A stretch of DNA of 24,000 nucleotides from Oscillospiraceae bacterium (GCA_016293865.1 JAEDDG010000024.1:1048-25047), one strand, 5' to 3'. Counted from the stretch's first letter, positions 1,479 through 21,239 are shown. Numbers and translations are program-made. The notes: generated by a model not told the origin, from the sequence alone.

Positions 1479-3995
1479 ATGAAACTTTCATTTTCCATTA
1501 AAGGCTGGAACGGATACAGCTGGGATGAGTTCTGCGCCCTGGCAAAGGATATGGATATTCAGGGCATTGAGCTTTACAATATTCACAATACTGCGTTTAC
1601 AGAGAAGGGCGGCCCCTTTGACGAGCATACGGCGGCGGCCACTCTGCGGGAAATGCATGCGCACAATCTGCAGATCCCGTGCATCGATTCTGTCTGCGAC
1701 ATCGCCGACGCTGCGCAGTATGAACACAACTGCACGGAAATTGACGCCTGTATCAAAACGGCGGCGAGCTTTAAAGTTCCCTATGTCCGCGTACACGCCA
1801 CCGGCGGCGACGATGTGACGGAAACCGTGATGAACTGCCTGCGCAGGGCTGTTGCAGCCGCGGAAGCGGCGGGTGTCACTGTGCTGATTGAAACGGTGGG
1901 GCTCTTTGCCGACACCGGCCGGCTGAGAAATGTCCTGAATGATTTTGCCTGCGACAATCTCGGCGCGCTGTGGGATATGCAGCATCCCTACCGCATCTGC
2001 GGCGAAAAGCCGGACACGACAATCCAGAATCTGGGTGCCTATGTCCGCCATGTGCATGTGAAGGACTCTGAAGTTGTGGACGGCCAGGTGGAATACCGCC
2101 TGATGGGCGAGGGCACGCTGCCTATGCAGGATATGATGAACGCCCTGCGCAGCGTGAACTACAACGGCTTCATTTCCCTGGAATGGGATCCCGCCTGGAT
2201 GCCTGAAATCGACGATATTGAGGTTATCCTGCCGCATTTCGTGAATTACATGAACCGGTTCAGCGATCCCTCCCGGTCGCGCTCCGTTCTGTATGACAAC
2301 CATACGCATACAGGCAAATATGTCTGGAAAAAGGAACTGATCATCGAGAAGACATTCTCTCAGGTACTGGACAGAATGGTGGAGGAATTCCCGGATCAGT
2401 ACGCCTTCAAATATACGACGCTGGATTACACCCGGACCTATGCCGAGTTCAGGGACGATGTGGACGAGTTTGCCCGCACGCTGATCGCGCTGGGCGTCAA
2501 GCCCGGCGACAAGGTGTCCATCTGGGCGACCAACATTCCCCAGTGGTATATCACCTTCTGGGCGACAACGAAGATCGGCGCGATCCTGGTGACTGTCAAT
2601 ACGGCGTACAAGGTGCATGAGGCCGAATATCTGTTCCGTCAGTCCGACACCCATACAATCGTGATGATTGACGGCTACAGGGATTCCAACTACTCTGAAA
2701 TCATCGCGGAGCTGTGCCCGGAGCTGGAGAATACCGTGCCCGGCCAGCCGTTGCATGCAAAGCGCCTGCCGTTCCTGCGCAACGTGATCACCGTCGGGTT
2801 CAGACAGAAGGGCTGCCTGACCTGGGAGGAATCCCTGCTGCTGGCAAACCGCGTGCCCCAGGAAGAGGTGGATCGCAGGGCGGCTGCGGTGGACATTCAC
2901 GACGTGTGCAACATGCAGTATACGTCGGGTACCACGGGCTTCCCCAAGGGTGTTATGCTGACCCATTACAACGTCGTCAACAACGGCAAGGCCATCGGCG
3001 ACTGCATGGATCTGTCCACGGCAGACCGGATGATGATCCAGGTGCCCATGTTCCACTGCTTCGGCATGGTGCTGGCCATGACGGCATCCATGACGCACGG
3101 GGCGACGCTGCATCCGATTCCGTATTTCTCACCGAAATCTTCGCTGGCCTGCATCAACAACGAGCATGTGACGGCCTTCCACGGCGTGCCGACCATGTTT
3201 ATTGCCATGCTCGAGCATGAAGATTTTGAAAAGACTGATTTTTCCTACATGCGTACGGGTATTATGGCCGGTTCCCCCTGTCCCATCAAGGTGATGGAGG
3301 ACGTTGTGGAAAAGATGCACATGCCGGAAATCTGCATTACGTACGGGCAGACGGAGGCATCGCCCGCCACGACCATGAGCAAGACCACAGACTCCATCGA
3401 AACCCGTGTCAATACCGTGGGCAGCCCCATCTTCGGCGTCGAGTGCAAAATTATCAATCCGGAGACAGGCGAGGAAGTGCCGGACAACGTGGACGGCGAG
3501 TTCTGCGCCCGGGGCTACAACATCATGAAGGGATATTACAAGATGCCCATCGCCACGGCGGAAGCCATTGACAAGGACGGCTGGCTCCACTCCGGAGATC
3601 TGCTGCGCCGCCTGCCGGACGGCACGTTCAAGGTTACCGGCCGCCTGAAGGATATGATTATCCGCGGCGGCGAGAACATCTACCCCAAGGAGATCGAGGA
3701 CTTCCTCTACACCCATCCCAAGGTTTCGGACGTTCAGGTCATCGGCGTGCCGGATGAGCAGTACGGCGAGGAAATCATGGCCTGCGTGATTGTGAAGGAA
3801 GGGGAAACGCTGACCGAAAGCGAGCTGCGGGAATATTGCCGCACGCGCATTGCCAAGCATAAGGTCCCGCGCTACTTCGATTTTGTGGATTCCTTCCCCA
3901 TGAATGCGGCCGGAAAGATCCTCAAATACAAAATGCGCGAACAGGCGGTGGACAAGCTGGGCCTGAAGAAGGCGGCGTCGGTTGTGACGGCCTGA
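1479..3995 (+). CDS. Fusion protein: N-terminal xylose-isomerase-like (sugar phosphate isomerase/epimerase, AP-endonuclease-2 type) TIM barrel plus C-terminal AMP-forming acyl-CoA ligase (FadD/ACSF2-like)
   Basis: One 838-aa ORF. Its ATG lies 2 nt after the stop of the upstream gene. Residues about 1-270 carry TIM-barrel metal-ligand-like positions (LIETVG, WDMQHP, HVHVKD, SLEWD). Residues about 300-838 carry adenylate-forming motifs YTSGTTGFPKGVMLTH, YGQTE, GWLHSGD and GRLKDMIIRGGENIYPKEIE. Confidence 0.85.
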   Translation: MKLSFSIKGWNGYSWDEFCALAKDMDIQGIELYNIHNTAFTEKGGPFDEHTAAATLREMHAHNLQIPCIDSVCDIADAAQYEHNCTEIDACIKTAASFKVPYVRVHATGGDDVTETVMNCLRRAVAAAEAAGVTVLIETVGLFADTGRLRNVLNDFACDNLGALWDMQHPYRICGEKPDTTIQNLGAYVRHVHVKDSEVVDGQVEYRLMGEGTLPMQDMMNALRSVNYNGFISLEWDPAWMPEIDDIEVILPHFVNYMNRFSDPSRSRSVLYDNHTHTGKYVWKKELIIEKTFSQVLDRMVEEFPDQYAFKYTTLDYTRTYAEFRDDVDEFARTLIALGVKPGDKVSIWATNIPQWYITFWATTKIGAILVTVNTAYKVHEAEYLFRQSDTHTIVMIDGYRDSNYSEIIAELCPELENTVPGQPLHAKRLPFLRNVITVGFRQKGCLTWEESLLLANRVPQEEVDRRAAAVDIHDVCNMQYTSGTTGFPKGVMLTHYNVVNNGKAIGDCMDLSTADRMMIQVPMFHCFGMVLAMTASMTHGATLHPIPYFSPKSSLACINNEHVTAFHGVPTMFIAMLEHEDFEKTDFSYMRTGIMAGSPCPIKVMEDVVEKMHMPEICITYGQTEASPATTMSKTTDSIETRVNTVGSPIFGVECKIINPETGEEVPDNVDGEFCARGYNIMKGYYKMPIATAEAIDKDGWLHSGDLLRRLPDGTFKVTGRLKDMIIRGGENIYPKEIEDFLYTHPKVSDVQVIGVPDEQYGEEIMACVIVKEGETLTESELREYCRTRIAKHKVPRYFDFVDSFPMNAAGKILKYKMREQAVDKLGLKKAASVVTA

Positions 3996-4066: not shown

Positions 4067-4096
4067 TTGACACGGACGAAAAAATAAGAGTAAAAT
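4067..4096 (+). promoter_or_regulatory. Sigma-A-like promoter of T-box leader 1
   Basis: TTGACA (4067-4072), 18-nt spacer, TAAAAT (4091-4096), about 25 nt upstream of the Stem I K-turn. Confidence 0.6.
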
Positions 4097-4119
4097 GACA
4101 TCAATTGAATCATTGTTAA

Positions 4120-4404
4120 AGGCTGTGACGAAGACGGAAGAGCGATTTCACATCCAGAGAGCCGGGGACGGTGTGAGCCCGGCGGTGCAGATCCTCATAT
4201 TCCCATCCCTTCCGAGCTGTTGGCCCCAAAGTCCGTTCCGGATGAGTAGACGCCTTCCGTGATTGCTGCGTGAATGCATAGGGCTTGACTGAGCCTGAGA
4301 GCGGTGCCGGATAACCGGCGCAATTTGAGTGGTACCGCGGGTTTATCTTGTTTGTAAACTCGTCTCAAGGATTTCCGTATCTTTGAGACGAGTTTTTTGT
4401 TTTT
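4120..4404 (+). promoter_or_regulatory. T-box riboswitch leader 1 (tRNA-sensing transcription attenuator)
   Basis: K-turn GGC-UGU-GA (4121-4128) opposite GA-GCU (4214-4218). AGAGA bulge at 4156-4160. Distal hairpin gccggg/cccggc with loop GACGGUGUGAG (4161-4183). GAGUAG and CCGUGA (F-box-like) at about 4242-4262. T-box sequence AAUUUGAGUGGUACCGCGG at 4322-4340. UUGAG (4325-4329) can pair with CUCAA (4364-4368) in the 5' arm of the terminator, giving an antiterminator alternative. Confidence 0.85.
4357..4404 (+). terminator. Intrinsic terminator of T-box leader 1
   Basis: actcgtctcaa (4358-4368) pairs with ttgagacgagt (4383-4393), followed by TTTTTGTTTTT. It sits immediately before RBS AAGGAGG (4405-4411). 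Confidence 0.85.
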
Positions 4405-4417: not shown

Positions 4418-6685
4418 ATGATGAGCAGCTACGTTGACAACAGCATCCTTGAGGTGGCGCACCGCATTCGTGAAATGCGCGAGATCGCGGGCTTTTCCGT
4501 GGAAGAGATGGCCGCCCAGACCAATGTGACGGCTGATATGTACCGGACGCTGGAGGCAGGCGGGACGGACCTTCCGTTCACATTTATCCACAAGTGCGCG
4601 CTGGCCTTCGGCATTGAGATTACCGACCTGATTGAAGGCAAAAGCGCCAAGCTTACCAGCTATACAGTGACCCGCAAAGGTGAGGGACGTGTGACAGCCC
4701 AGGAGGACGGGATTGAAATCCTTGACCTTGCGCCGCAGTTCCGCAAAAAAATTGCAGAGCCGTACTGGGTCCGCTATGAGTATTCTGAAGAGCTGCAGAC
4801 AAAGCCCATTCATCTGACCACACACTCCGGCCAGGAGTTTGACTATATCATCAAGGGCCGCCTGAAGGTTCAGGTCGGCAATCACATCGAAGTTCTCAAT
4901 GAGGGCGATTCGATTTACTACAACAGCTCCACGCCGCACGGCATGATTGCCGTCAACGGTGAGCCCTGCGTATTCTGCGCGGTTGTTCTGCCGGGCGAGG
5001 ATGCGGCGGAGAGCGAGCACAAAAACAGCATCATCCATCCCCGGACGGCGGAGCCCATGATCTGCGACAAGTTTGTGCGCTGCACAGAGGATGAGGAAGG
5101 CCATCTGCAGAAGATCGAGTTTACGAATGAGGATCAGTTCAACTTCGGCTTCGACGTGGTGGATGCGCTGGCGGATAAGTATCCCGATAAGCTTGCCATG
5201 CTGCACATTGCAGAGGATATGACCGAGCGCCGCTTCAGCTTTGCGGACATGAAGCGCGCCAGCGCCCAGACGGCCAACTATTTCACTTCACTGGGCATCA
5301 AAAAGGGCGACCGGGTCATGCTGGTGCTCAAGCGGCACTATCAGTTCTGGTTCTCCATGCTGGCGCTGCATAAGATGGGCGCCATCCCGATCCCGGCCAC
5401 AAACCAGCTTCTGGAGCACGATTTTGAGTACCGTTTCGATGCGGCCGGCATCTCGGCAATCGTCTGCACGGCTGACGGAGACGCTGCGCACCAGGCGGAG
5501 CTGGCCATGGAAAAATGCCCGCAGGTGACTGTCCGCGTGCTCGTAGGCGGGAAGCGGGAAGGCTGGCACGATTTTGACAGCGAGTACAAGCTTTTCTCCG
5601 GCTCTTATCCGCGTACGGAAGAGACGCCCTGCGGCGACGACATCATGTTCATGCTCTTTACTTCCGGCACCACAGGGTACCCGAAAATTGCGGAGCACAG
5701 CTACAAGTATCCGCTCGGCCACTATGTGACCGCCAAGTACTGGCACTGTGTGGAGCGGGGCGGCCTGCACCTGACCATTTCCGATACCGGCTGGGGCAAG
5801 GCGCTGTGGGGCAAGCTTTACGGCCAGTGGCTGGCAGAAGGCGCCGTATTCGTCTATGACTTTGACCGGTTCGATGCCCATAAGATTCTGCCCATGTTTG
5901 CAAAATACAACATTACAACCTTCTGTGCGCCGCCCACCATGCTGCGCATGATGGTCAAGGAGGATCTGTCACAGTACGATCTGAGCTCCGTCACCCATAT
6001 GACGACGGCAGGCGAGGCGCTGAATCCCGAGGTCTTCCGCCAGTTCGAGGCGGCCACCGGCCTGCAGATCATGGAAGGTTTCGGCCAGACGGAGACGACG
6101 CTCCTGATCGGCAACCTGATCGGCGATACACCCAAGCTGGGATCCATGGGCAAGCCCTCGCCCCAGTATGACGTGGTGATTGTGGACGCACAGGGCAAGG
6201 AAGTCCCGGTCGGTGAAAACGGCGAAATCTGCGTGCGTACAGACAAGGGCGTGCCCTGCGGCCTGTTCAAGGGCTATTACAACGCGCCGGATAAAACGGC
6301 CGAGGTCTGGCACGACGGCCTGTACCACACCGGCGACGTGGCCTGGAAGGATGAGGACGGCTATCTGTGGTACGTCAGCCGCATCGACGACGTGATCAAA
6401 TCCTCCGGCTACCGCATCGGGCCGTTTGAGATTGAGAGCGTGATCATGGAGCTTCCGTATGTTCTGGAGTGCGGCGTTTCTGCGGCTCCGGATCCGGTGC
6501 GCGGCCAGGTGGTCAAGGCGTCCATCGTTCTGACTAAGGGAACCGAGGGGACCGAGGAGCTGAAAAAAGAGATCCAGGATTATGTGAAAAAGCATACCGC
6601 ACCGTACAAATATCCGCGTATTGTGGTCTTCCGTGACAGTCTGCCCAAGTCCATCAGCGGCAAGATCCAGCGCAACAAGCTGTAA
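4418..6685 (+). CDS. XRE-family HTH + cupin + medium-chain acyl-CoA synthetase (MACS/ACSM-like, AMP-forming) fusion, paralog 1
   Basis: 755-aa ORF with AAGGAGG 6 nt upstream. HTH at about aa 10-70 (FSVEEMAAQTNVTADMYRTLEAG). Cupin at about aa 130-190 (HSGQEFDYIIKG...STPHGMIAV). Ligase motifs FTSGTTGYPK, GFGQTET, YHTGDVA, RIDDVIKSSGYRIGPFEIES, SGKIQRNKL. Confidence 0.9.
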   Translation: MMSSYVDNSILEVAHRIREMREIAGFSVEEMAAQTNVTADMYRTLEAGGTDLPFTFIHKCALAFGIEITDLIEGKSAKLTSYTVTRKGEGRVTAQEDGIEILDLAPQFRKKIAEPYWVRYEYSEELQTKPIHLTTHSGQEFDYIIKGRLKVQVGNHIEVLNEGDSIYYNSSTPHGMIAVNGEPCVFCAVVLPGEDAAESEHKNSIIHPRTAEPMICDKFVRCTEDEEGHLQKIEFTNEDQFNFGFDVVDALADKYPDKLAMLHIAEDMTERRFSFADMKRASAQTANYFTSLGIKKGDRVMLVLKRHYQFWFSMLALHKMGAIPIPATNQLLEHDFEYRFDAAGISAIVCTADGDAAHQAELAMEKCPQVTVRVLVGGKREGWHDFDSEYKLFSGSYPRTEETPCGDDIMFMLFTSGTTGYPKIAEHSYKYPLGHYVTAKYWHCVERGGLHLTISDTGWGKALWGKLYGQWLAEGAVFVYDFDRFDAHKILPMFAKYNITTFCAPPTMLRMMVKEDLSQYDLSSVTHMTTAGEALNPEVFRQFEAATGLQIMEGFGQTETTLLIGNLIGDTPKLGSMGKPSPQYDVVIVDAQGKEVPVGENGEICVRTDKGVPCGLFKGYYNAPDKTAEVWHDGLYHTGDVAWKDEDGYLWYVSRIDDVIKSSGYRIGPFEIESVIMELPYVLECGVSAAPDPVRGQVVKASIVLTKGTEGTEELKKEIQDYVKKHTAPYKYPRIVVFRDSLPKSISGKIQRNKL

Positions 6686-6758: not shown

Positions 6759-6787
6759 TTGACAACCTTTTTTCGGTGTGGTAATCT
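6759..6787 (+). promoter_or_regulatory. Sigma-A-like promoter of T-box leader 2
   Basis: TTGACA (6759-6764), 17-nt spacer, TAATCT (6782-6787), with TG 1 nt upstream (TGgTAATCT, extended -10-like). Confidence 0.55.
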
Positions 6788-6803
6788 TTACTCAATTCAG
6801 AAA

Positions 6804-7089
6804 AGCTTTGACGGAGAGTGCCCTGGCAGGCCGTGTTTCAGAGAATTGGCGTCTGGTGCGAGCCAATAATACGCAGCCAGCGGTTTGTAGCTCCCGAGCT
6901 GGAAGGAAGAAAGCGCGTGCGTGAGTAGAACCTTCCCGTGACTGCTGCGTAAAGGCATAGGGCTTGACAGAGTCTGAGAGTGGCGCTGGTTTCCGGCGCA
7001 ATTTGAGTGGTACCGCGGGTCTTTATATGAACGTATAAAACTCGTCTCAAAGATTACAACATCTTTGGGGCGGGTTTTTGTTTTACCGC
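6804..7089 (+). promoter_or_regulatory. T-box riboswitch leader 2 (tRNA-sensing transcription attenuator)
   Basis: K-turn AGC-UUU-GA (6804-6811) opposite GA-GCU (6896-6900). AGAGA at 6840-6844. Distal hairpin attggc/gccaat with loop GUCUGGUGCGA. GAGUAG and CCGUGA elements at about 6922-6941. A 28-nt block ccggcgcaatttgagtggtaccgcgggt (6993-7020) is identical to 4315-4342. Terminator ctcgtctcaaagat / atctttggggcggg (7041-7074, several G-U pairs) followed by TTTTTGTTTT. Confidence 0.85.
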
Positions 7090-7110
7090 CCCGGAAAACG
7101 GAGGAAAATT

Positions 7111-9378
7111 ATGGTTGCTGTGAACACAAAAATTCAGGAAATTGCCGGCCGTATCCGCGAGCTGCGGGAGGTTATGGGTCATACGGTGGGCGATATGGCA
7201 GCTCTGACCGGGATCTCCGAGGAAGAGTATGCGGCCTGTGAAAGCGGCCAGCGTGATCTGAGCTTTGCATTTCTGTACCTTTGCGCCCAGGCGTTCCGCG
7301 TGGACGTGACGGACATCATTCAGGGCCAGAGCCCCAAACTGAAAAGCTATTCCATCACCCGCGCGGGCGAGGGACAGCTGATCAACCGCGCCCATGATAT
7401 GGAATATTTCAACCTGGCCGGCTCTTTCCGCAAGAGAATTGCGGATCCTCTGTATGTCAACATCACCTATGTGGAAGGCGCCGAGCGCCGTCCCATTGAA
7501 GTGACCACCCATGAGGGCCAGGAGTGCGACATTGTGCTCAAGGGCACAATGAAGCTGCAGGTCGGCGAGCATGTGGAAATCCTGCACGAGGGCGACTGCG
7601 CCTATTATGACAGCTCCACGCCGCACGGCATGATTGCAGTCGGCGGCAAGGACTGCGTTTTTTACGCAATTGTTCTGACGCCGAACAAGGACGAGGAGAG
7701 CAAAAGCGCCGACGTGGAAACAAGATCCACGGAGAAGGACAACACCATTCGCGTCTGGAACGAGTTTGTGGAGCCTGTTGAGGATGAGAAGGGCTGCTTG
7801 AAAAGCATTTCCTTCAAGAACACGGACCGCTTCAATTTTGCCTTTGACGTGGTCGACAGGCTGGGACAGGAAAAACCGGACAAGACGGCCATCCTGCATG
7901 TGAGCAGGGATCATACGGCACGACGCATTACCTTCGGCGAGATGAAGCGCGCCAGCGCCCAGACGGCCAACTATTTCAAGTCCCTGGGCATCAAAAAAGG
8001 CGACCGGGTCATGCTGATTCTCAAGCGTCATTATCAGTACTGGTTCTGCGTCAACGCCCTGCACAAAATCGGCGCCATTGCGATTCCGGCCATGTGCCAG
8101 CTGCTGGACCATGACATTGAATACCGGTTCAATGCCGCCGGCGTGTCCACCATTATCTGCACGGCGGACGGCGATACCGCGCATCAGGTGGAACTGGCGT
8201 GTGCCCGCTGCCCGCAGGTTGTCAATAAGATCCTTGTGGGCGGAAAGCGGGAAGGCTGGCGTGATTATGACGAGGAATACCAGCTGTTTTCCGGCCGGTT
8301 CCCCCGCACGGCGGATACGCCCTGCGGCGACGACCTGATGCTTATGTACTTCACTTCCGGCACGACCGGCTACCCGAAAATGGCGGCGCACAGCTACAAG
8401 TATCCGCTGGGCCATTTTGTAACGGCGAAATACTGGCAGTGCGTGAATCCCGAAGGACTGCATCTGACCATTTCCGATACCGGCTGGGCCAAGGCCGGCT
8501 GGGGCAAGATTTACGGCCAGTGGCTGTGCGAAGGCGGTCTGTTTGTCTATGACTTCGACCGGTTCGACGCCCATGATATCCTGCCCATGTTTGCCCAGTA
8601 TCACATTACAACCTTCTGCGCGCCGCCCACCATGCTGCGCCTGATGGTCAAAGAGGATATCAGCAAGTACGATCTGAGCTCGATCGAGCACATGACGACG
8701 GCCGGCGAGGCGCTGAATCCGGAGGTCTTCCGCCAGTTCAAGGCGGCAACGGGCCTGAACATTATGGAGGGCTTCGGCCAGACGGAGACGACGGTGATCG
8801 TCGGCAATCTGGAGGGCACGAAGGTCCGTATCGGGTCCATGGGCAAGGCGAATCCCCAGTATGATGTGGACATCGTCGATCCCCAGGGGAACAGCGTGCC
8901 CGTGGGCGAAAACGGCGAGATCGTGATCCGCACAGACAAGGGCGCGCCCTGCGGCCTGCTGAAGGAATACTACAAGGCGCCGGACAAAACGCTGGAGACC
9001 TGGCATGACGGCATGTATCACACAGGCGACGTGGCCTGGCGCGATGAGGACGGTTATTTCTGGTATGTGGGCCGGATTGACGATGTGATCAAATCTTCCG
9101 GCTACCGTATCGGCCCGTTCGAAATCGAGAGCGTGATCATGGAGCTGCCGTACGTTCTGGAGTGCGGCGTGTCCGCGGCGCCGGATCCGGTCCGCGGCCA
9201 GGTGGTCAAGGCGTCCATCGTCCTTACAAAGGGAACCGAGGGAACCGAAGAGCTGAAAAAAGAGATTCAGGCTTATGTCAAGGAGCATACGGCTCCGTAT
9301 AAATATCCGCGCATTGTTGTGTTCCTGGACTCCCTGCCCAAGACCACCAGCGGCAAGATCCAGCGCAACAAGCTGTAA
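7111..9378 (+). CDS. XRE-family HTH + cupin + medium-chain acyl-CoA synthetase fusion, paralog 2
   Basis: The ORF track starts at 7078, but that start lies inside the T-box terminator U-tract. ATG 7111 is preceded by GGAGGA and gives 755 aa (MVAVNTKIQEIAGRIRELRE...), the same length and architecture as paralog 1. The last 101 aa differ from paralog 1 at 5 positions. Confidence 0.9.
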   Translation: MVAVNTKIQEIAGRIRELREVMGHTVGDMAALTGISEEEYAACESGQRDLSFAFLYLCAQAFRVDVTDIIQGQSPKLKSYSITRAGEGQLINRAHDMEYFNLAGSFRKRIADPLYVNITYVEGAERRPIEVTTHEGQECDIVLKGTMKLQVGEHVEILHEGDCAYYDSSTPHGMIAVGGKDCVFYAIVLTPNKDEESKSADVETRSTEKDNTIRVWNEFVEPVEDEKGCLKSISFKNTDRFNFAFDVVDRLGQEKPDKTAILHVSRDHTARRITFGEMKRASAQTANYFKSLGIKKGDRVMLILKRHYQYWFCVNALHKIGAIAIPAMCQLLDHDIEYRFNAAGVSTIICTADGDTAHQVELACARCPQVVNKILVGGKREGWRDYDEEYQLFSGRFPRTADTPCGDDLMLMYFTSGTTGYPKMAAHSYKYPLGHFVTAKYWQCVNPEGLHLTISDTGWAKAGWGKIYGQWLCEGGLFVYDFDRFDAHDILPMFAQYHITTFCAPPTMLRLMVKEDISKYDLSSIEHMTTAGEALNPEVFRQFKAATGLNIMEGFGQTETTVIVGNLEGTKVRIGSMGKANPQYDVDIVDPQGNSVPVGENGEIVIRTDKGAPCGLLKEYYKAPDKTLETWHDGMYHTGDVAWRDEDGYFWYVGRIDDVIKSSGYRIGPFEIESVIMELPYVLECGVSAAPDPVRGQVVKASIVLTKGTEGTEELKKEIQAYVKEHTAPYKYPRIVVFLDSLPKTTSGKIQRNKL

Positions 9379-9387
9379 GGAGAACTT

Positions 9388-10071
9388 ATGCTTACAAAAC
9401 GCATTTCCCTGTTTGCCGGCCATTACGGCAGCGGAAAGACGAATATCGCCGTGAACTGCGCGCTGTGCGCCAGGGAAGCGGGGCAGAACGTGACCATTGC
9501 CGACCTGGATATTGTCAACCCGTATTTCCGGACAAAGGACAGCGAGGCGCTTTTGAAGCGTCATGGGATCGGCCTTGTCTGCTCCGAATATGCCAATACA
9601 AATCTGGATATCCCGGCACTGCCCAAGGAACTGTATGCCATATTGGCACGCAGGGATTCAGCGGTTATAATGGATATCGGCGGCGATGACCGCGGCGCCG
9701 TGGCGCTGGGCCGCTATACGCCGATGATTCTGGAAGAAAACGATTACGACATGTTTTTTGTGGCCAATTTTTACCGGCCGCTGACCCGTACGCCGGAAGA
9801 AATGATCCAGATCATGCGTGAGATTGAAACGGCTTCCGGCCTGCCGTTTACGGCAATCATCAACAACTCGAACCTTGCCGGCGACACACAGGCAGACACA
9901 GTGACAGACACTGTGGGGAAGGCGCGGGAACTGTCCCGGATAACGGGGCTGCCCATACGCGCCACCTGTGTGGAGCAGAGGCTTTTCGAAAGCCTGAAGG
10001 ATCAGATACCGGATCTTGTTCCGCTGCATCTTCAGGAAAAATATTTTGACATTGTAAATGGAGGGATCTAA
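9388..10071 (+). CDS. P-loop NTPase (SIMIBI/MinD-ParA-CooC-like), function unknown
   Basis: Walker A AGHYGSGKTN near the N-terminus and a Walker-B-like VIMDIGGDD. RBS AAGGAGA overlaps the stop of the upstream ligase gene. Its stop lies 1 nt before the ferredoxin-subunit start. Confidence 0.75.
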   Translation: MLTKRISLFAGHYGSGKTNIAVNCALCAREAGQNVTIADLDIVNPYFRTKDSEALLKRHGIGLVCSEYANTNLDIPALPKELYAILARRDSAVIMDIGGDDRGAVALGRYTPMILEENDYDMFFVANFYRPLTRTPEEMIQIMREIETASGLPFTAIINNSNLAGDTQADTVTDTVGKARELSRITGLPIRATCVEQRLFESLKDQIPDLVPLHLQEKYFDIVNGGI

Positions 10072-10072
10072 A

Positions 10073-10279
10073 ATGGCGAAGCTGACATTTAAAACCGACC
10101 TGTGCAAGGGATGCGGACTGTGCGTCAACGCATGTCCGAAGGGCGTGCTTGAAATTGCGCGCGACAAAATCAACCTCAAGGGGTATTCTCCCGTGGTTGC
10201 CAGGGATATGGATAAATGCATCGGTTGTGCATTCTGCGCAACCATGTGTCCCGACTGCATTATTACAGTAGAAAAGTGA
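10073..10279 (+). CDS. 2-oxoacid:ferredoxin oxidoreductase delta subunit (2x[4Fe-4S] ferredoxin)
   Basis: Two CxxCxxCxxxCP motifs (CKGCGLCVNACP, CIGCAFCATMCP). ATG 10073 (MAKLTFK...) is preceded by GGAGGG. The ORF-track start 10058 overlaps the previous gene. Confidence 0.85.
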   Translation: MAKLTFKTDLCKGCGLCVNACPKGVLEIARDKINLKGYSPVVARDMDKCIGCAFCATMCPDCIITVEK

Positions 10280-10289
10280 GGTGCCGATT

Positions 10290-11351
10290 ATGGCAGAAAA
10301 AGTATTGATGAAGGGCAATGAAGCCATTGCCGAGGCAGCCATCCGCGCCGGCTGCCGTCACTATTTCGGATATCCCATCACGCCGCAGACAGAAATCGCG
10401 GCATATATGGCCAAGAAAATGCCGAAAATCGGCGGAACATTTCTCCAGGCGGAAAGTGAAATTGCCGCCATTAATATGGTCTACGGCGTATCCTCTGCCG
10501 GCTTCCGGGTCATGACCTCGTCATCCAGCCCCGGTGTCAGCCTGAAGAGCGAGGGCCTGTCCTATCTGGCGGGCTGCGACCTGCCGGCGCTTGTGGTCAA
10601 TGTCCAGCGCGGCGGCCCCGGCCTCGGCGGCATTCAGCCCTCCCAGTCCGATTATTTTATGGCCACCAAGGGCGGCGGACACGGCGATTTCCGCATGATC
10701 GTTCTGGCGCCTGCTTCTGTTCAGGAAATGGCCGGCCTGACCTTCAAGGCTTTTGAACTGGCCGATCAGTACAGAATGACCGCCATGCTGCTGGCTGACG
10801 GAACTCTGGGTCAGATGATGGAGGCCATCACGTTCCCGGAGACTGAGGTCAGGACATTTGACAAGCCCTGGGCCGTCACCGGCACGCAGATGAAGCGCCC
10901 CCACAACATCATCAATTCTCTGGCGCTCGTACCGGATGTGCTGGAAAAGATGAATTTTGACCGGTATAAGAAATACGCGGAAATCGAGGAAAAGGAGCCC
11001 ATGTACGAATCGTACATGATGGATGACGCGGAAATCTGTGTCGTCGCCTTCGGTATTGCCTCCCGCGTGTCCAAGAATGCAATTATGGCCGCAAGGGCTG
11101 AGGGCATCAAGGTGGGCATGATCCGGCCCATCACGCTCTGGCCGTTCCCCACAAAGGCGCTGGCAGAAGCGGCGCAGAAGTGCAGGGCGTTTGTCTCTGT
11201 TGAACTCAACATGGGCCAGATGATTGAAGATGTCCGGCTGGCTACCGGCTGCGCGCGGCCTGTTTCCCTGTGCAACAGAGCCGGCGGTATGATCCCCACG
11301 CCGGATCATGTCCTTGCATCCATTCGGGAAGCCAACAAGGGAGGTAACTGA
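10290..11351 (+). CDS. 2-oxoacid:ferredoxin oxidoreductase alpha subunit (KorA/VorB-type)
   Basis: MAEKVLMKGNEAIAEAAIRAGCRHYFGYPITPQTEI is the typical OFOR alpha N-terminus. GAGGTG sits 6 nt upstream of ATG 10290. Confidence 0.9.
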   Translation: MAEKVLMKGNEAIAEAAIRAGCRHYFGYPITPQTEIAAYMAKKMPKIGGTFLQAESEIAAINMVYGVSSAGFRVMTSSSSPGVSLKSEGLSYLAGCDLPALVVNVQRGGPGLGGIQPSQSDYFMATKGGGHGDFRMIVLAPASVQEMAGLTFKAFELADQYRMTAMLLADGTLGQMMEAITFPETEVRTFDKPWAVTGTQMKRPHNIINSLALVPDVLEKMNFDRYKKYAEIEEKEPMYESYMMDDAEICVVAFGIASRVSKNAIMAARAEGIKVGMIRPITLWPFPTKALAEAAQKCRAFVSVELNMGQMIEDVRLATGCARPVSLCNRAGGMIPTPDHVLASIREANKGGN

Positions 11352-11353
11352 TT

Positions 11354-12112
11354 ATGGTCGTTTTTGAGAAACCTCATGCCCTCACCGATGCACCGCTGCA
11401 TTACTGCCCCGGCTGCACGCACGGCATTGTTCACCGCCTTGTGGCGGAAGCCATCGACGCCCTCGGAATTGAGGGGAAGACCATCGGCGTGGCGCCGGTC
11501 GGCTGCTCCGTCATGGCCTATAATTATTTTTCATGCGATATGATTGAAGCGGCGCACGGCCGCGCACCGGCTGTGGCAACCGGCGTAAAGCGGGCGCTGC
11601 CGGACAACATTGTCTTTACATATCAGGGCGACGGCGATCTGGCGTCCATCGGCACGGCGGAGACCGTTCACGCTGCAGCGAGAAACGAGAACATTACGAT
11701 TATCTTCATCAACAACGCCATTTACGGCATGACCGGCGGCCAGATGGCGCCCACGTCGCTGCCCGGCCAGGTGACGCAGACTTCGCCGTACGGCCGCGAT
11801 CCGCAGCTGTGCGGTTTCCCGGTTAAAATCTGCGAAATGCTTTCTCAGCTGGAAGGTCCGGAGTATATTGAGCGCGTGGCGGTCAACAACGTCAAGAACA
11901 TCAAAAAAGCCGGCAAAGCCATTCTGAAAGCTTTTAAGAACCAGACGGAGAACAAGGGCTTCTCGCTGATTGAAGTTGTCTCCACCTGTCCCACCAACTG
12001 GGGTATGACGCCGCAGGACGCGATGAAGTGGGTGGATGAAAAAATGATTCCCTATTACCCGCTGGGCGTTTACAAAGACAGAAGCGCGGAAAAAGCAGAG
12101 GAGGGGAAATAA
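11354..12112 (+). CDS. 2-oxoacid:ferredoxin oxidoreductase beta subunit (TPP-binding)
   Basis: CPGCTHG cysteine motif and TPP motif YQGDGDLASIG...NNAIYGMTGGQ. Tightly packed against the alpha and gamma genes. Confidence 0.9.
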   Translation: MVVFEKPHALTDAPLHYCPGCTHGIVHRLVAEAIDALGIEGKTIGVAPVGCSVMAYNYFSCDMIEAAHGRAPAVATGVKRALPDNIVFTYQGDGDLASIGTAETVHAAARNENITIIFINNAIYGMTGGQMAPTSLPGQVTQTSPYGRDPQLCGFPVKICEMLSQLEGPEYIERVAVNNVKNIKKAGKAILKAFKNQTENKGFSLIEVVSTCPTNWGMTPQDAMKWVDEKMIPYYPLGVYKDRSAEKAEEGK

Positions 12113-12645
12113 TGGCCACTTCACAGATTCTGATTGCGGGTTTCGGCGGACAGGGCGTCCTTTTCGCCGGGAAGTTTTTGGCCTACAAGGCCCTGACTGA
12201 GAATAAGCAGCTGAGCTGGCTGCCGTCCTACGGCCCGGAAATGCGCGGCGGCACGGCCAACTGCAGCGTGATTATCAGCGACGATCCGGTTGGTTCTCCC
12301 ATCATTACCACGCCGGACTGCCTGATTGCCATGAACCGGCCGTCTCTTGACAAATATGTGGACGCAGTGGCGCCCGGCGGCATGATCCTTGTGGATTCGT
12401 CCCTGATCAGCGTCGAGGTCGAACGCACGGATGTCCGCACCTTCTATATTCCGGCAACCAAAATGGCAAATGACGCGGGCTTCGCGACGCTTGCGAACAT
12501 GGTTCTTGTGGGCAAACTGATCAAGGAATCCGGCGTTGTTTCTTTTGAAAATAACAAAGAGACTTTTGAAAAGTTCATTCCGGCAAAGAAAGCAAATCTG
12601 ATTGAGATCAACTGCCAGGCCCTGCAGACCGGGTATGATTATTAA
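12112..12645 (+). CDS. 2-oxoacid:ferredoxin oxidoreductase gamma subunit
   Basis: N-terminal [16 protein letters not shown] and [19 protein letters not shown] are typical of OFOR gamma subunits. TAATG overlap with the beta subunit gene. Confidence 0.9.
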
Positions 12646-12663
12646 AGGAAAGGATGTATTACC

Positions 12664-13737
12664 ATGCTTGACATTAAGATCACCAAAACCACACAGCCCA
12701 AGCAAAAGCCCGCGCCGGGTCAGAAACTCGGCTTCGGCCATATTTTCACCGACCATATGTTCATCATGAACTATACGGAAGGAAAAGGCTGGCATGATCC
12801 GCGGATCGTTCCGTTCCAGAATCTGAGCCTGTCTCCCGCGGCGATGGTTTTTCACTACGGTCAGGAAATGTTCGAAGGCCTGAAGGCCTATAAGAATTCC
12901 GACGGCGAAGTTTTCCTTTTCCGCCCGGATATGAACGCCAAGCGCACCAATTCTTCCAATGAGCGTCTGTGTATCCCGCAGCTGCCGGAAGAGGATTTTG
13001 TCCAGGCTGTCAGAACGGTTGTGGATGTGGACCGCGACTGGGTCCCGACGGATCCCGGCACGTCCCTGTATATCCGTCCGTTCATCATCGCAACGGATGA
13101 GTTCCTGGGTGTTGCGCCGTCCAAGACGTATCTGTTCATGGTCATTCTGTCACCCAGCGGCGCTTATTATGAAAGCGGACTGGAGCCTGTGGGCATCTGG
13201 ATTGAGGATGAGTATGTCCGTGCGGTCCGCGGCGGCATGGGCTTTGCCAAAACCGGCGGCAACTATGCGGCCAGCCTGATCGGCCAGGTGAAGGCGCACA
13301 ACGACGGTTATTCCCAGGTTCTGTGGCTGGACGGTGTGGAGCGCAAGTACGTTGAGGAAGTCGGCTCCATGAATATTTTCTTCAAAATTGCCGGCAAAGT
13401 GGTTACGCCCATGCTCAACGGCAGCATCCTGCCGGGCATTACCCGCAACTCTGTCATTACCCTGTGCAAAGAGTGGGGCTATGAGGTTGAGGAACGGAAG
13501 GTTTCTGCTGAAGAGCTGATTCAGGCGCATGCAGACGGCACGCTGGAAGAGGTTTTCGGCACCGGTACTGCAGCCGTCATTTCTCCTGTCGGCAAGCTGC
13601 GCTATAAGGACGATGTGATGACGATCCAGGACGGCAGGACCGGCGAACTGAGCCACCGTCTCTATGATACCATTACCGGCATTCAGCTGGGCAAGCTGCC
13701 GGACACGCACGGCTGGCGTGTAAAAGTCGGCGAATAA
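12664..13737 (+). CDS. ilvE: Branched-chain amino acid aminotransferase (class IV, long form)
   Basis: 357 aa. Motifs FGHIFTDHMF, YGQEMFEGLKAY, RAVRGGMGFAKTGGNYAASL and ILPGITR match long-form IlvE (YbgE/YwaA type). RBS AAGGAAAGGA upstream. Confidence 0.9.
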   Translation: MLDIKITKTTQPKQKPAPGQKLGFGHIFTDHMFIMNYTEGKGWHDPRIVPFQNLSLSPAAMVFHYGQEMFEGLKAYKNSDGEVFLFRPDMNAKRTNSSNERLCIPQLPEEDFVQAVRTVVDVDRDWVPTDPGTSLYIRPFIIATDEFLGVAPSKTYLFMVILSPSGAYYESGLEPVGIWIEDEYVRAVRGGMGFAKTGGNYAASLIGQVKAHNDGYSQVLWLDGVERKYVEEVGSMNIFFKIAGKVVTPMLNGSILPGITRNSVITLCKEWGYEVEERKVSAEELIQAHADGTLEEVFGTGTAAVISPVGKLRYKDDVMTIQDGRTGELSHRLYDTITGIQLGKLPDTHGWRVKVGE

Positions 13738-13829
13738 TCGGAAATAAACCATGCCCGGGCGGCGCTGCGCGCTGTCCGGGCACTGCGTGTGTTGTGGCGG
13801 CATATACTGTAAAAAAGAAATAATGAGAG

Positions 13830-14765
13830 GTGCACCCTTTGGTTTATAATAATGTGCTGGAGGCGGTCGGACAGACGCCCGTCATTCGGCTGATGCGCAT
13901 GAGCAATCCCAATCATGCCCAGGTTCTTGTCAAATATGAAGGGCTGAACGTGGGCGGTTCGATCAAAACGCGGACTGCGCTGAATATGATCAACGCGGCC
14001 GAGCGTGCCGGGATTATCCGTCCGGATACGATTATTGTGGAGCCGACCAGCGGAAACCAGGGCATCGGTCTGGCACTGGTCGGTGCTGTCCGCGGCTATA
14101 AAACTGTGATTATCATGCCCGATTCGGTCAGTGTGGAGCGGCGCAAACTGATTGAGCATTACGGCGCGCAGCTTGTGCTGATCCGGGACGAGGGCAACAT
14201 CGGCGACTGCATTGAAAAGTGTATTCAGACGGCAAATGACATGGCGAAAGCGGACAGCCGCGTTTATATTCCACAGCAGTTTTCCAATCCGAACAATCCA
14301 CTGGTGCATAAGCATTTCACGGCGCTGGAGATTCTCCAGCAGGTTGCAGGGCCCATTCACGGCTTCTGCTCCGGAATCGGTACGGGCGGCACAATTTCCG
14401 GCATCGGCGAGACGCTGAAAAGCGTTTATCCGGATATGACCATCTGGGCTGTTGAGCCGGAGAACGCGGCGATTCTGGCCGGAGGAACGGTCGGCTCCCA
14501 TCTTCAGATGGGAATCGGAGACGGCCTGATTCCGGAAAATCTGAACACGAAGATTTACGACGATATCTACATTGTCAGTGATGATGAGGCCATCGGAACA
14601 GCCAAGGATCTGGCGCGGTACGAGGGTCTGATGTGCGGCATTTCCAGCGGCACAAATGTGGCCGCGGCGCTGAAGCTTGCGGAGAAGCTGGGGAAGGGAA
14701 AAACAGTTGTGACCATTCTGCCGGACACGGCGGAGCGCTATTTTTCCACGCCGCTGTTTGACTGA
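13830..14765 (+). CDS. cysK: Cysteine synthase A / O-acetylserine sulfhydrylase (PLP-dependent)
   Basis: GQTPVIRL, GGSIKTR (PLP lysine), TSGNQGIGLA and GIGTGGTISG motifs. The start is uncertain: GTG 13830 overlaps the GAGAGG RBS, so TTG 13839 (spacing about 7 nt) is at least as likely. Confidence 0.85.
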   Translation: MHPLVYNNVLEAVGQTPVIRLMRMSNPNHAQVLVKYEGLNVGGSIKTRTALNMINAAERAGIIRPDTIIVEPTSGNQGIGLALVGAVRGYKTVIIMPDSVSVERRKLIEHYGAQLVLIRDEGNIGDCIEKCIQTANDMAKADSRVYIPQQFSNPNNPLVHKHFTALEILQQVAGPIHGFCSGIGTGGTISGIGETLKSVYPDMTIWAVEPENAAILAGGTVGSHLQMGIGDGLIPENLNTKIYDDIYIVSDDEAIGTAKDLARYEGLMCGISSGTNVAAALKLAEKLGKGKTVVTILPDTAERYFSTPLFD

Positions 14766-14775
14766 ATACGGAATT

Positions 14776-14809
14776 CATGCCGCACAGAAGCGCGCTTCTG
14801 TGCGGCATG
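14776..14809 (+). terminator. Perfect 17-bp palindromic hairpin after cysK (probable terminator, no U-tract)
   Basis: catgccgcacagaagcg / cgcttctgtgcggcatg, starting 11 nt after the cysK stop. The lack of a T-run lowers confidence that it is an intrinsic terminator. Confidence 0.5.
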
Positions 14810-14904
14810 GCATAGTATGAAACAGCCGCGCCGGGCTGGCTTCTGCGCAGATGCCGGCCCGGGCATATGCGGCGTCTTTTTTTACGGCGGATTCAAAAAT
14901 ACTC

Positions 14905-14933
14905 TTGTCATTGCGACGGGGTAAGTATATAAT
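14905..14933 (+). promoter_or_regulatory. Sigma-A-like promoter of the ACT/UPF0210 pair
   Basis: TTGTCA (14905-14910), 17-nt spacer, TATAAT (14928-14933). Confidence 0.55.
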
Positions 14934-14981
14934 CCATAAGCAGTTTAACCGACAGATACAAAAGATATGGAGGTTTTTTTC

Positions 14982-15251
14982 ATGCGTGCAATCGTCACTG
15001 TCGCCGGGCATGACCGGGTGGGAATTATCGCTGAGGTGTGCTCGCTGCTTGCCTCTCTGAATGTCAATATTCTGGATATCAACCAAACGGTCATGCAGGA
15101 GTTTTTCACGATGACCATGCTGGTGGATACAAGCGCCGCATCCGGAAGCTTTGAACGGATCAAAAAGGCGCTGGCCGACAAAGGCGAGGCGATGGCGCTT
15201 TCCATCCGCATCCAGCAGGAAGACATTTTTAACGCCATGTACAGAATATGA
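14982..15251 (+). CDS. ACT domain protein (UPF0237 family)
   Basis: MRAIVTVAGHDRVGIIAEVCSLLASLNVNILDINQTVMQEFFTM is an ACT fold signature. GGAGG sits 8 nt before ATG 14982 (ORF-track start 14967 rejected). Confidence 0.85.
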   Translation: MRAIVTVAGHDRVGIIAEVCSLLASLNVNILDINQTVMQEFFTMTMLVDTSAASGSFERIKKALADKGEAMALSIRIQQEDIFNAMYRI

Positions 15252-15261
15252 GGTATAAAGT

Positions 15262-16620
15262 ATGATCAGCCATTCTGATATTATCCGCACGCTGGAAATG
15301 ATTGATCACCAGCATCTGGATATCCGCACCATTACCATGGGCATATCACTGCGCGACTGTGCGGATCCTGACGTGCGCCGCTGTGCGGAAAAAATTTATG
15401 ATAAAATCACCCGCTGCGCCGACAAACTGGTGGAGACCGGGTGCCAGATTGAAAATGAACTGGGCATTCCGATTGTCCATAAGCGCATTTCCGTTACGCC
15501 TGCGGCATTGGTTGCCGAGGCCTGTCAGACGGAGGACTACGTGCCCATTGCCCGGGCAATGGACGATGCAGCCAAGGCCTGCGGCGTCAATTTTATCGGC
15601 GGATTCTCTGCGCTTGTCCACAAAGGCTGTACAGTGGGAGACCGGCGCCTGATCGGGTCTATTCCAGAGGCGCTTGCCGTTACGGAGCGGGTTTGCTCCA
15701 GCGTCAATGTGGCCACGACCCGCGCGGGAATCAATATGGACGCTGTGGCGCAGATGGGCCGCGTGATTAAGCGCACGGCGGAGCTGACGGCGGAAAGCGG
15801 CGGCCTCGGCTGTGCCAAACTGGTGGTTTTTTCCAACGCGGTGGAGGATAACCCGTTTATGGCCGGCGCATTTCACGGCGTGGGAGAGCCGGAGTGCGTG
15901 ATCAATGTGGGAGTATCCGGCCCGGGCGTTGTGTATCATGCGCTGAAAGGCGTACGCGGCGCTTCCTTTGATGTCGTAGCCGAAACGGTTAAAAAGACGG
16001 CCTTCCAGATTACGCGGATGGGTGAGCTTGTGGCGCAGGAGGCGTCCCGGCGGCTGGGTGTTCCCTTTGGCGTAGTGGATCTGTCCCTGGCACCGACGCC
16101 GGCAAAGGGGGACAGCGTGGCCCGCATTCTGGAGGAAATGGGGCTGGAAACCTGCGGGACGCATGGAACCACCGCTGCGCTGGCGCTGCTGAACGATGCG
16201 GTCAAAAAAGGCGGCGTGATGGCGTCCAGCCACGTGGGCGGCCTTTCCGGCGCATTTATCCCCGTCAGCGAGGACGAGGGAATGATAGAAGCCGCTGCCG
16301 GCGGAACGCTCTGTCTGGATAAGCTGGAGGCCATGACCTGCGTGTGCTCTGTGGGTCTTGACATGATTGCCGTTCCCGGCGATACGCCGGCGGAAACCAT
16401 TTCCGCCATCATCGCGGACGAAGCGGCAATCGGAATGGTGAACAACAAGACCACGGCAGTGCGTGTGATTCCCGTGCCGGGGAAAACCGTGGGGGACAAC
16501 GTGGAGTTCGGCGGACTTCTGGGCAGTGCGCCCGTTATGCCGCTGCATCCGGAGAGCAGCGCGGCCTTTATCGCCCGCGGCGGACGTATTCCGGCGCCGC
16601 TGCACAGCCTGCGCAACTGA
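15262..16620 (+). CDS. UPF0210 (DUF711, PFL-like) family protein
   Basis: 452 aa. [16 protein letters not shown] near the N-terminus and the typical pairing with the upstream UPF0237 ACT protein. Confidence 0.8.
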
Positions 16621-16705
16621 TCTGCGGTACGGTGGATTTGTGCGGAAACGGTATTCATGCCGTTTACGGTATGAATGGCCGAAAAAGTACATCATCAGTT
16701 AATAT

Positions 16706-16743
16706 AAAGAGAGGATGAAACCAGATTTCATCCTCTCTTTTTG
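16706..16743. terminator. Bidirectional intrinsic terminator between convergent genes
   Basis: aaagagaggatgaaa (16706-16720), loop ccag, atttcatcctctcttt (16725-16740), followed by TT. A-rich 5' flank and T-rich 3' flank. Confidence 0.8.
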
Positions 16744-16776
16744 CGTTTGTTCACTTTTCGGCCGGTATTCCCTGTA

Positions 16777-17397: not shown

Positions 17398-17476
17398 CAC
17401 GCGCTCCTTTCGTACCGTACTGCTCTGTGCTCTTCGGTTTAACGACGGGCAATGCGGTGCGAAAGTTCCGGAAAGT

Positions 17477-18133: not shown

Positions 18134-18209
18134 CCGTTTTTCTCCCTGTGGTTTGTTTTTCTGCTGTTTATGCGGCGCCGGACTGCGGGGACACAGCCGT
18201 CCGCAGCGG

Positions 18210-18241
18210 GAAAAAGCCTCCGGCCTTGATGCCGGAGGCTT
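18210..18241 (-). terminator. Intrinsic terminator after the ior-UPF0340 operon
   Basis: agcctccggc / gccggaggct (18215-18224 and 18231-18240). On the minus strand it is followed by a U-run (plus-strand AAAAA at 18211-18215). Confidence 0.8.
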
Positions 18242-18247
18242 TCAGCT

Positions 18248-18793: not shown

Positions 18794-18825
18794 ACAGAAT
18801 CACCTTCCGGAAAATTGGTACCGAA

Positions 18826-19398: not shown

Positions 19399-19399
19399 G

Positions 19400-21181: not shown

Positions 21182-21239
21182 AGTTCTGTCCTCCAATATA
21201 GATTTTCCTGCTCTCTTTGAGACAAAATTACATCAAAAT

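Follow-up and report, generated by a model that had tools for sequence, protein, structure and literature searches.

A 24,000-nt stretch of genomic DNA from an Oscillospiraceae bacterium (GCA_016293865.1 JAEDDG010000024.1:1048-25047), analysed in full and referred to here as the window, carries at positions 6759 to 13737 of the + strand a promoter and a terminator-bearing T-box leader, followed by seven packed, co-directional genes. The feature starts at the −35 box of the promoter (TTGACA at 6760-6765), and the complete promoter (6760-6788), assigned by sequence reading and conservation, adds a 17-nt spacer and TGG-TAATCT as an extended −10 element. A valine-specific T-box leader (leader 2, 6799-7085) follows, supported by Rfam RF00230, specifier, covariation, and terminator. 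The first gene, lig2 (7111-9378), encodes a 755-amino-acid (aa) protein in which a helix-turn-helix (HTH) domain (HTH_XRE) and a Cupin_2 domain precede an AMP-forming acyl-CoA ligase of the MACS (medium-chain acyl-CoA synthetase) type, as judged from Pfam, NCBIfam, the match to PDB 3ETC, and a tree. The second encodes a 227-aa P-loop NTPase, predicted to be of the SIMIBI class (9388-10071; alignment, AlphaFold2 model, Foldseek, and synteny).

Four genes for the subunits of a 2-oxoacid:ferredoxin oxidoreductase (OFOR) come next: a 68-aa 2×[4Fe-4S] ferredoxin delta (10073-10279; Pfam Fer4 families and the gene call in an identical strain), a VorB-type alpha with POR_N and PFOR_II domains (10281-11351; Pfam and NCBIfam NF005507), a thiamine pyrophosphate (TPP)-binding beta (11354-12112; Pfam TPP_enzyme_C, 78-85% identical across loci), and gamma (12112-12645; Pfam POR). 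The last gene encodes IlvE, a class IV, type II branched-chain aminotransferase (12664-13737; NF009897 and TIGR01123). Gaps between the genes, from lig2 through ilvE, are 9, 1, 1, 2, −1, and 18 nt; the delta reading frame opens at 10058, and gene callers use the ATG one base past the P-loop stop (10073). Pfam and NCBIfam calls thus bear out the gene order and tight packing described in the initial annotation.

Two further transcription units with ligases lie 5′ of this feature on the same strand. One has a sigma-70-type promoter (4067-4096, TTGACA-18-TAAAAT, 11 of 12 matches, its place conserved in relatives), an isoleucine-specific T-box leader (leader 1, 4116-4403; Rfam RF00230, specifier, and terminator), and lig1 (4418-6685), which encodes a 755-aa ligase with the same HTH_XRE, Cupin_2, and MACS-type architecture (Pfam, NCBIfam, and tree). 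The other consists of a pseudo-isopropylmalate synthase (pseudo-IPMS) with HMGL-like and LeuA_dimer domains (19-1476; Pfam, NCBIfam, and motif alignment) and a third acyl-CoA ligase of 838 aa, with an AP_endonuc_2 TIM barrel and an AMP-binding domain (1479-3995; Pfam and NCBIfam). The window begins inside the first gene of this third unit, so that its 5′ leader falls outside, and a 61-kb contig from a near-identical strain (L083) was used for the missing region.

Conservation was assessed in the best 80 of at least 585 species-representative relatives recovered by a genome scan with the ligase (65-70% identity kept), all of them from uncultured Clostridia of gut, rumen, or digesters, and neighboring genes were counted by tblastn with the window proteins. 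The cluster is conserved in about 50 to 60 of these 80 species-level genomes. A P-loop gene lies 3′ of lig2 in 62 of 80 loci, is missing in 6 as the contig ends too early, and is truly absent from 12. The complete block of P-loop, delta, alpha, beta, and gamma genes occurs in 50 loci, ilvE is part of the cluster in 39 (behind either lig2 or vorG), lig1 is present in 54, and the pair of "LeuA" and 838-aa ligase genes is found upstream or downstream in 32. With a T-box before 80 of 81 lig2 genes and the P-loop gene adjacent to vorD in 59 of 60 loci, the arrangement at 6759-13737 is not a product of chance. Loci with a lone lig2 behind a Val T-box and no oxidoreductase, P-loop, or ilvE gene near it (L052, L056, L061-L063, L065, L072, L075, L076, and L078-L080) include Christensenellales metagenome-assembled genomes; in L062 the neighbors of lig2 are NUDIX and glycosyltransferase genes.

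T-box leaders and their specifier codons

Leader 2 matched the Rfam T-box model RF00230 from end to end (6799-7052; 87.2 bits, E = 7.9e-19), leader 1 matched at 4116-4370 (56.7 bits, E = 5.7e-11), and the leader of the third unit, read from the near-identical strain (8273-8510 of its contig), scored 101 bits, above the RF00230 gathering score. An Rfam scan of the window at the default gathering threshold reported nothing, and the T-boxes surfaced with E-value thresholds; E-values of 8e-19 and 6e-11 are decisive for T-box identity despite the sub-threshold scores. Both window leaders carry the full Stem I signature, with UGA...GA K-turn motifs, a GGAG/CUCC helix, AGAGA, and UGGUGCGAGCC. In leader 1, the specifier AUC (4205-4207) is followed by the T-box sequence (4322-4341) and a 17-bp terminator (4356-4395) with its U-run; in leader 2, the specifier GUA (6887-6889) and G6890 are followed by the T-box sequence (7000-7019) and an 18-bp terminator (7037-7078), again with a U-run. 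The T-box sequence AAUUUGAGUGGUACCGCGGG was identical in all 40 leaders aligned, and the terminators use the CUCGUCUCAAAG strand of the antiterminator, overlapping its 3′ half.

Comparative data carry the same conclusion. An RNAalifold consensus of 40 orthologous lig2 leaders recovered the base and distal helices of Stem I, Stem II, Stem III, and the terminator, and 31 of 54 predicted pairs showed compensatory changes on both sides. The T-box core motif lies upstream of 80 of 81 lig2 genes and 48 of 53 lig1 genes. Because of this conservation before the ligases and the covariation, the leaders are regarded as real T-boxes despite their scores. The initial annotation had taken leader 2 for a T-box controlling branched-chain amino acid (BCAA) synthesis, and its model match, terminator, covariation, and recurrence before lig2 confirm the first part of that claim.

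The second part needed narrowing. Specifiers were extracted with a parser that requires the K-turn and a complementary basal helix and takes the codon at −4 to −2 from the helix. Leaders of lig1 had AUC in 44 of 44 cases, and those of lig2 had GUA in 61 and GUC in 5 of 67 (66 of 67 Val), so leader 2 does carry a BCAA codon and is valine-specific rather than generic. The leader of the third unit has CUC in the near-identical strain, and the same leader is found in most other loci. With these codons the leaders are specific for Ile, Val, and Leu, and in the Rfam alignment GUA and CUC fall where the model has its codon. Each is predicted to respond to its cognate uncharged tRNA by antitermination.

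A reading frame shifted by one base would give CAU, UGU, and UCU (His, Cys, and Ser), amino acids to which nothing in the cluster corresponds; it was considered since UGU, too, is invariant and ilvE has cysK behind it. It was ruled out by the codon position in Rfam, by the canonical geometry, which yields exactly Ile, Val, and Leu, and by cysK standing beside no related locus. The base after the Ile specifier (4208) is C in the window, as it is in 14 of 44 orthologous leaders, while a purine is usual in T-boxes; the corresponding base is G in leader 2 and A or G in the Leu leader. Nearly all related loci (about 60) have a Val-unit promoter of the conserved form TTGACAA-17-TATAAT. A search of 105 promoter regions for a conserved palindromic operator of the fused HTH domain found only the sigma-70 boxes conserved, and a search of the window for tRNA genes returned none.

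Ligases, ferredoxin oxidoreductase, and accessory proteins

The two MACS-type ligases are 68% identical to each other. Their catalytic domain (residues ~237 to 753) matches Pfam AMP-binding (E = 1e-62) and AMP-binding_C (E = 1e-21), and its closest solved relative is PDB 3ETC (MacsMa of Methanosarcina acetivorans; E = 7.7e-179, 599 bits, with the next match at 347 bits). The preferred substrate of MacsMa is 2-methylbutyrate (PMC10455477), so the preference of a Methanosarcina enzyme mentioned in the initial annotation was correct and belongs to the best solved relative of these ligases. The top NCBIfam model for lig1 and lig2 is MbcS (NF047394; 421 and 426 bits), a match that serves only as a lead to the likely substrate class. 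MbcS of S. aureus acts selectively on 2-methylbutyrate and isobutyrate and is poor with isovalerate (PMC10026030), a pattern that fits the need for a separate ligase in a leucine branch.

Division of the two paralogs follows their leaders. In a neighbor-joining tree of 134 ligases, all 53 Ile-T-box ligases formed an exclusive clade, and 12 positions distinguish the clades (at least 90% conserved within each, differing between them): 8 in the cupin, 3 in the HTH, and 1 in the 510-aa catalytic domain. This single catalytic residue is Gly460 in lig1 and Ala460 in lig2. It aligns with Val310 of E. coli Acs, which together with Thr311, Val386, and Trp414 we take to form the acetate pocket of that enzyme, and MacsMa has Gly at the same place. 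The Trp414 column is Gly556 in both lig1 and lig2, the same Trp-to-Gly change as in MacsMa. Gly in place of Ala at position 460 therefore points to a roomier pocket in the Ile-linked lig1, which suits a C5 acid, 2-methylbutyrate, as the substrate of lig1 and a C4 acid, isobutyrate, as that of lig2 and speaks against propionate for lig1. On the basis of their relatives, T-box specificities, and the Gly/Ala460 difference, lig1 is a candidate 2-methylbutyrate-CoA ligase and lig2 a candidate isobutyrate-CoA ligase.

The designation "MACS-type ligase" given initially to lig2 describes the catalytic domain, for which 3ETC is the best match, but overlooks the HTH_XRE and Cupin_2 module of the first ~200 to 230 aa, present on both ligases (4418-5110 and 7111-7800). 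In lig2 all of its Pfam scores pass their cut-offs (HTH_31, 27.2 against 27; HTH_3, 25.3 against 23; Cupin_2, 47.4 against 27.2). A full-library search with the N-terminal part returned many stand-alone HTH-cupin proteins of ~185 aa, 35-45% identical over ~190 aa. Three metagenome contigs (L087, at 748-2510, L089, and L090) have a stand-alone HTH-cupin gene (~190 aa) followed by a MACS-type ligase gene, spaced by 11 nt or overlapping by 4 nt, and these ligases are 46-52% identical to lig1 and lig2. In L089 (2-2342) the pair is divergent from a P-loop-vorD-vorA operon, with 86 nt between them, and L090 (1-2077) has the same 86-nt region on a contig that ends within the P-loop gene. The divergent region is too short for a T-box and holds an inverted repeat, CGTATC-N9-GATACG. 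The L089 arrangement therefore links regulator, ligase, P-loop protein, and oxidoreductase also in split form, with the window proteins as the fused form. That the paralog-specific residues gather in the cupin suggests ligand sensing that differs between the Ile and Val branches.

All four OFOR subunits are encoded together, as POR_N plus PFOR_II, TPP_enzyme_C, POR, and 2×[4Fe-4S]. At 538 bits, the alpha subunit clears the cut-off (399) of NF005507 ("3-methyl-2-oxobutanoate dehydrogenase subunit VorB"); none of beta, gamma, and delta reaches a named equivalog in NCBIfam. The enzyme belongs to the KOR/"VorB" clade, in which homology alone leaves the substrate undecided, and its putative specificity for branched chains, that is, as a 2-oxoisovalerate:ferredoxin oxidoreductase (VOR), is supported by the NCBI family name and the gene context. 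IlvE passes both of its equivalog models, NF009897 (503.8 bits, cut-off 307) and TIGR01123 (412.5 bits, cut-off 250).

The P-loop protein scored 23.6 bits against Pfam CbiA, under the cut-off of 25.4 for PF01656, and had no match in NCBIfam; its homologs are annotated as hypothetical proteins. An alignment of 33 sequences shows the invariant motifs GHYGSGKT, DxDIVNPYFRTKDS, GGDDxGA, and NNxN, of which the first is the Walker A motif and not the deviant KGGxGK[ST] form. The AlphaFold model (pLDDT 85.7) found SRP54/FtsY GTPases and the ATPase-type HypB in Foldseek, with TM scores of only ~0.55. By these comparisons the protein resembles SIMIBI NTPases but falls outside every named family. An identity as a NifH-like or Mrp-like Fe-S protein was rejected, as no Cys is invariant among the 33 homologs, the CxxC of Mrp/NBP35 carriers included, and no close structural relative was found. 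The P-loop gene lies directly 5′ of vorD in 59 of 60 loci and in split system L089. This fixed place, kept even with ilvE between lig2 and the P-loop gene, ties the protein to the VOR and not to the ligase, and a conservative guess for its role is maturation or assembly of the VOR.

In the near-identical strain (L083, 8273-12517) the Leu T-box lies directly 5′ of the "LeuA" gene, which is followed by that of the 838-aa ligase. The "LeuA" protein scored 300 bits against NCBIfam LeuA, below the cut-off of 532. In an alignment of 32 homologs with E. coli LeuA, all 32 had lost LRDGEQ, HxHDDLG, GIGERAGN, and HSSGIHQDG by replacement or deletion, with substitutes that are not conserved among them. 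Pfam shows a degenerate HMGL-like barrel beside an intact LeuA_dimer allosteric domain. With its catalytic motifs lost and its score under the cut-off, 19-1476 is therefore a pseudo-IPMS, its leucine-binding regulatory domain still in place. The 838-aa ligase, a xylose-isomerase-like TIM barrel (AP_endonuc_2) fused to an AMP-binding domain of a subfamily different from that of lig1 and lig2, has NF009233 as its best NCBIfam model (705 bits, below the cut-off of 832) and directly follows the pseudo-IPMS in 32 of 32 loci with both. Because the Leu T-box precedes the pair and MbcS-type enzymes reject isovalerate, we propose with modest confidence that this protein is an isovalerate-CoA ligase and the pseudo-IPMS its leucine sensor.

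Proposed salvage of branched short-chain acids

It has been recognized since the 1960s that rumen and gut anaerobes require isobutyrate, 2-methylbutyrate, and isovalerate (isoacids), or draw on them, for Val, Ile, and Leu, and dairy cattle are fed isoacids for that reason. Labeling studies by Allison and co-workers reportedly showed that rumen anaerobes make BCAAs by reductive carboxylation of these acids. A 2020 paper described the reverse reaction as "not proven yet" (PMC7709123).

The cluster is best read as an assimilatory module for isoacid salvage, in which branched short-chain acids are converted to Val, Ile, and Leu and each substrate is gated by tRNA charging; we put the probability of this reading at roughly 0.7. 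Three transcription units, each with its own promoter and T-box, would be turned on by the uncharged cognate tRNA. In the Ile (AUC) unit, lig1 would convert 2-methylbutyrate to its CoA thioester, with ATP going to AMP and PPi. In the Val (GUA) unit, lig2 would activate isobutyrate, and the same transcript would supply the P-loop NTPase as an accessory, the OFOR, and IlvE. The Leu (CUC) unit, whose leader lies just 5′ of the window, would contribute the third ligase, presumably for isovalerate, and the catalytically dead IPMS. The four-subunit OFOR is predicted to act as a synthase, combining branched acyl-CoA, CO2, and reduced ferredoxin to give 2-oxoisovalerate, 2-oxo-3-methylvalerate, or 2-oxoisocaproate, which IlvE would transaminate to Val, Ile, or Leu.

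A route from branched-chain fatty acids (BCFAs) to BCAAs was already put forward in the initial annotation. All of its predictions that could be checked computationally held, and it gains support from the three BCAA-codon T-boxes on three ligases, the kinship with MacsMa and MbcS, the VorB and IlvE models, and synteny. AMP-forming ligases run toward acyl-CoA, T-boxes induce on uncharged tRNA, and OFORs are reversible. Since the ligases are AMP-forming and induction would come on starvation, the direction is probably anabolic and not fermentative, as the same annotation had argued.

Several observations weigh against this reading. Both window T-boxes score below the RF00230 gathering score of 93 bits, and T-box 1 has a C instead of a purine after its codon. 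The ligases, at 421 and 426 bits, fall far under the MbcS equivalog cut-off of 850 and are not MbcS members. The nearest structures to OFOR alpha are the alpha subunits of Pyrococcus 2-ketoacid:ferredoxin oxidoreductase and of 2-oxoglutarate synthase. The VOR and IlvE genes stand behind the Val T-box only, which leaves unexplained how Ile or Leu limitation alone would raise their expression; those conditions would call for basal read-through or for a VOR encoded at another genomic site. Finally, 12 species have a Val-T-box lig2 and no VOR nearby, a situation that itself fits a VOR encoded elsewhere.

The proximity of OFOR alpha to 2-oxoglutarate synthase structures, and the fact that alpha alone among the subunits passes a named NCBIfam model, leave some room for a role with other acids. 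The OFOR might serve as a synthase of 2-oxoglutarate or pyruvate with an indirect link to BCAAs, or lig1 could act on propionate, with the OFOR supplying 2-oxobutyrate to the classical Ile pathway; anaerobes are known to reach Ile through 2-oxobutyrate formed by reductive carboxylation of propionyl-CoA. A smaller pocket would be expected of a propionate enzyme, however, and the Ile-linked lig1 has the larger one. Both ligases share the replacement of Acs Trp414 by Gly with MacsMa, the nearest characterized relatives (MacsMa and MbcS) both prefer alpha-branched acids, and an IlvE in the operon suits branched 2-oxoacids. Weakened by the pocket data and these relatives, such a role is unlikely.

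We consider it more improbable still that isoacids are salvaged mainly as primers for branched-chain membrane fatty acids, with VOR and IlvE incidental or providing a reverse supply. MbcS is the top NCBIfam model for both ligases and has this primer-supplying role in S. aureus (PMC10026030), and 12 species have lig2 with no adjoining VOR. Gating of three ligases by three BCAA codons lacks a rationale in primer supply, however, and lig2 shares its operon with VOR and IlvE in most species.

Very little speaks for a catabolic cluster, in which IlvE and the OFOR would oxidize BCAAs to branched acyl-CoAs in a fermentation yielding isoacids. Both enzymes are reversible, and BCFAs are made by VOR- and pyruvate:ferredoxin oxidoreductase (POR)-type enzymes in gut Clostridia and Bacteroidota according to the literature, but AMP-forming ligases cost two ATP equivalents and offer no means of conserving energy from acyl-CoA, the cluster has no Ptb/Buk, ADP-forming synthetase, or CoA-transferase, and T-boxes are on at amino acid scarcity, the opposite of what a degradative operon needs. 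That the leaders are chance or decayed T-box matches, as scores of 87.2 and 56.7 bits against 93 and an empty default Rfam scan might imply, is already rejected by the comparative data, given full-length matches at E of ~1e-19 and 1e-11, perfect conservation of AAUUUGAGUGGUACCGCGGG, terminators that overlap the 3′ half of the antiterminator, leaders with conserved specifiers before 80 of 81 lig2 and 48 of 53 lig1 genes, and extensive covariation.

A tentative extension of the proposed salvage pathway, which we think possible but would not favor, places a second, protein-level layer of sensing atop the T-boxes, with the HTH-cupin and dead IPMS as sensors and the P-loop protein as a VOR accessory. 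The HTH-cupin may sense end product or substrate and tell the Ile from the Val branch, a role suggested by the location of 8 of the 12 paralog-specific residues in the cupin and one in the catalytic domain. The dead IPMS, keeping only its leucine-binding domain, may do the same for the third ligase. The ligases may then be "trigger enzymes" that combine catalysis with feedback control and possibly DNA binding, and the Cys-less P-loop NTPase may be a nucleotide-dependent accessory for the synthase function or assembly of the VOR.

Related systems and neighboring genes

Taken singly, the chemistry, the VOR enzymes, the MACS-type ligases, and the T-boxes are already known. In full-text literature searches and the 2008 and 2013 T-box surveys we found no description of the gene module or of T-box control of ligase or VOR genes, though an earlier mention in Vitreschak et al. 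2008 is possible. The leaders share with the T-box BCAA operons of Firmicutes (ilv-leu and ileS/valS/leuS; RF00230) the K-turn, specifier loop, distal loop, Stem III, NCCA-reading T-box bulge, terminator/antiterminator switch, and logic of induction by uncharged tRNA. Those operons control the acetolactate pathway, a tRNA synthetase, or a transporter, whereas here the genes are for acyl-CoA ligases, a ferredoxin oxidoreductase, and IlvE, and three leaders with three BCAA codons split one putative salvage pathway by substrate.

Similar comparisons apply to the proteins. MacsMa and MbcS belong to the same ANL subfamily as lig1 and lig2 and share the acyl pocket enlarged by the Trp-to-Gly change relative to Acs, but the window ligases add a 230-aa HTH_XRE and cupin module and occur as two paralogs with different T-boxes. 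Unlike that of MbcS, their proposed product would feed amino acid synthesis and not lipid synthesis. XRE-cupin regulators (e.g., PDB 1Y9Q; PuuR-like) resemble the N-terminal 190 aa of the ligases (35-45% identical) and stand alone, whereas the window module is fused to the ligase that the regulator adjoins elsewhere. The VOR of methanogens and Thermococcales has the same TPP/[4Fe-4S] alpha, beta, gamma, and delta modules, and the anabolic role proposed for the methanogen enzyme matches the one proposed here. In contrast to those enzymes, the window VOR is bacterial and lies in a T-box operon with a ligase and a transaminase, with a P-loop NTPase gene before vorD; KOR-type structures lie nearer to its alpha subunit than do the Pyrococcus VOR models (72 bits).

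The genes and control of isoacid use in fibre-associated Clostridia have so far been undefined, and the cluster supplies testable candidates. Specifier codons act as built-in labels, assigning one ligase to each amino acid and tying it to the VOR, the transaminase, and a new, putative accessory NTPase. With the ligase family in at least 585 species-level genomes, the genes offer a set of markers for predicting, from metagenomes, which organisms depend on isoacids. Routine annotation overlooks the module, as its T-boxes fall below the Rfam cut-off and its proteins go under the names "AMP-binding protein," "hypothetical protein," and "2-isopropylmalate synthase."

Genes 3′ of the feature differ in their relation to it. 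A cysK gene (13738-14765 region) begins 92 nt after ilvE, with no recognizable terminator between them and a promoter-like site at 13823-13850; found beside the module in 0 of 80 related loci, it is probably outside it. Positions 14967-16620 hold a conserved pair encoding an ACT-domain protein (94 aa) and a DUF711/UPF0210 protein (452 aa). A second OFOR, of the indolepyruvate type (indolepyruvate:ferredoxin oxidoreductase, IOR), lies on the minus strand within 18248-22342, with iorA at 19400-21196 and iorB at 18826-19398, accompanied on that strand by genes for DUF436 (18248-18793), flavodoxin (21370-21816), and a c-di-AMP receptor protein (21857-22342). Rfam, searched by E-value over 13600-24000, gave no leader 5′ of the IOR genes, and no ligase was found adjoining them. 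This cluster could be an aromatic counterpart of the module, leading from arylacetate to an aromatic amino acid, or could be unrelated to it.

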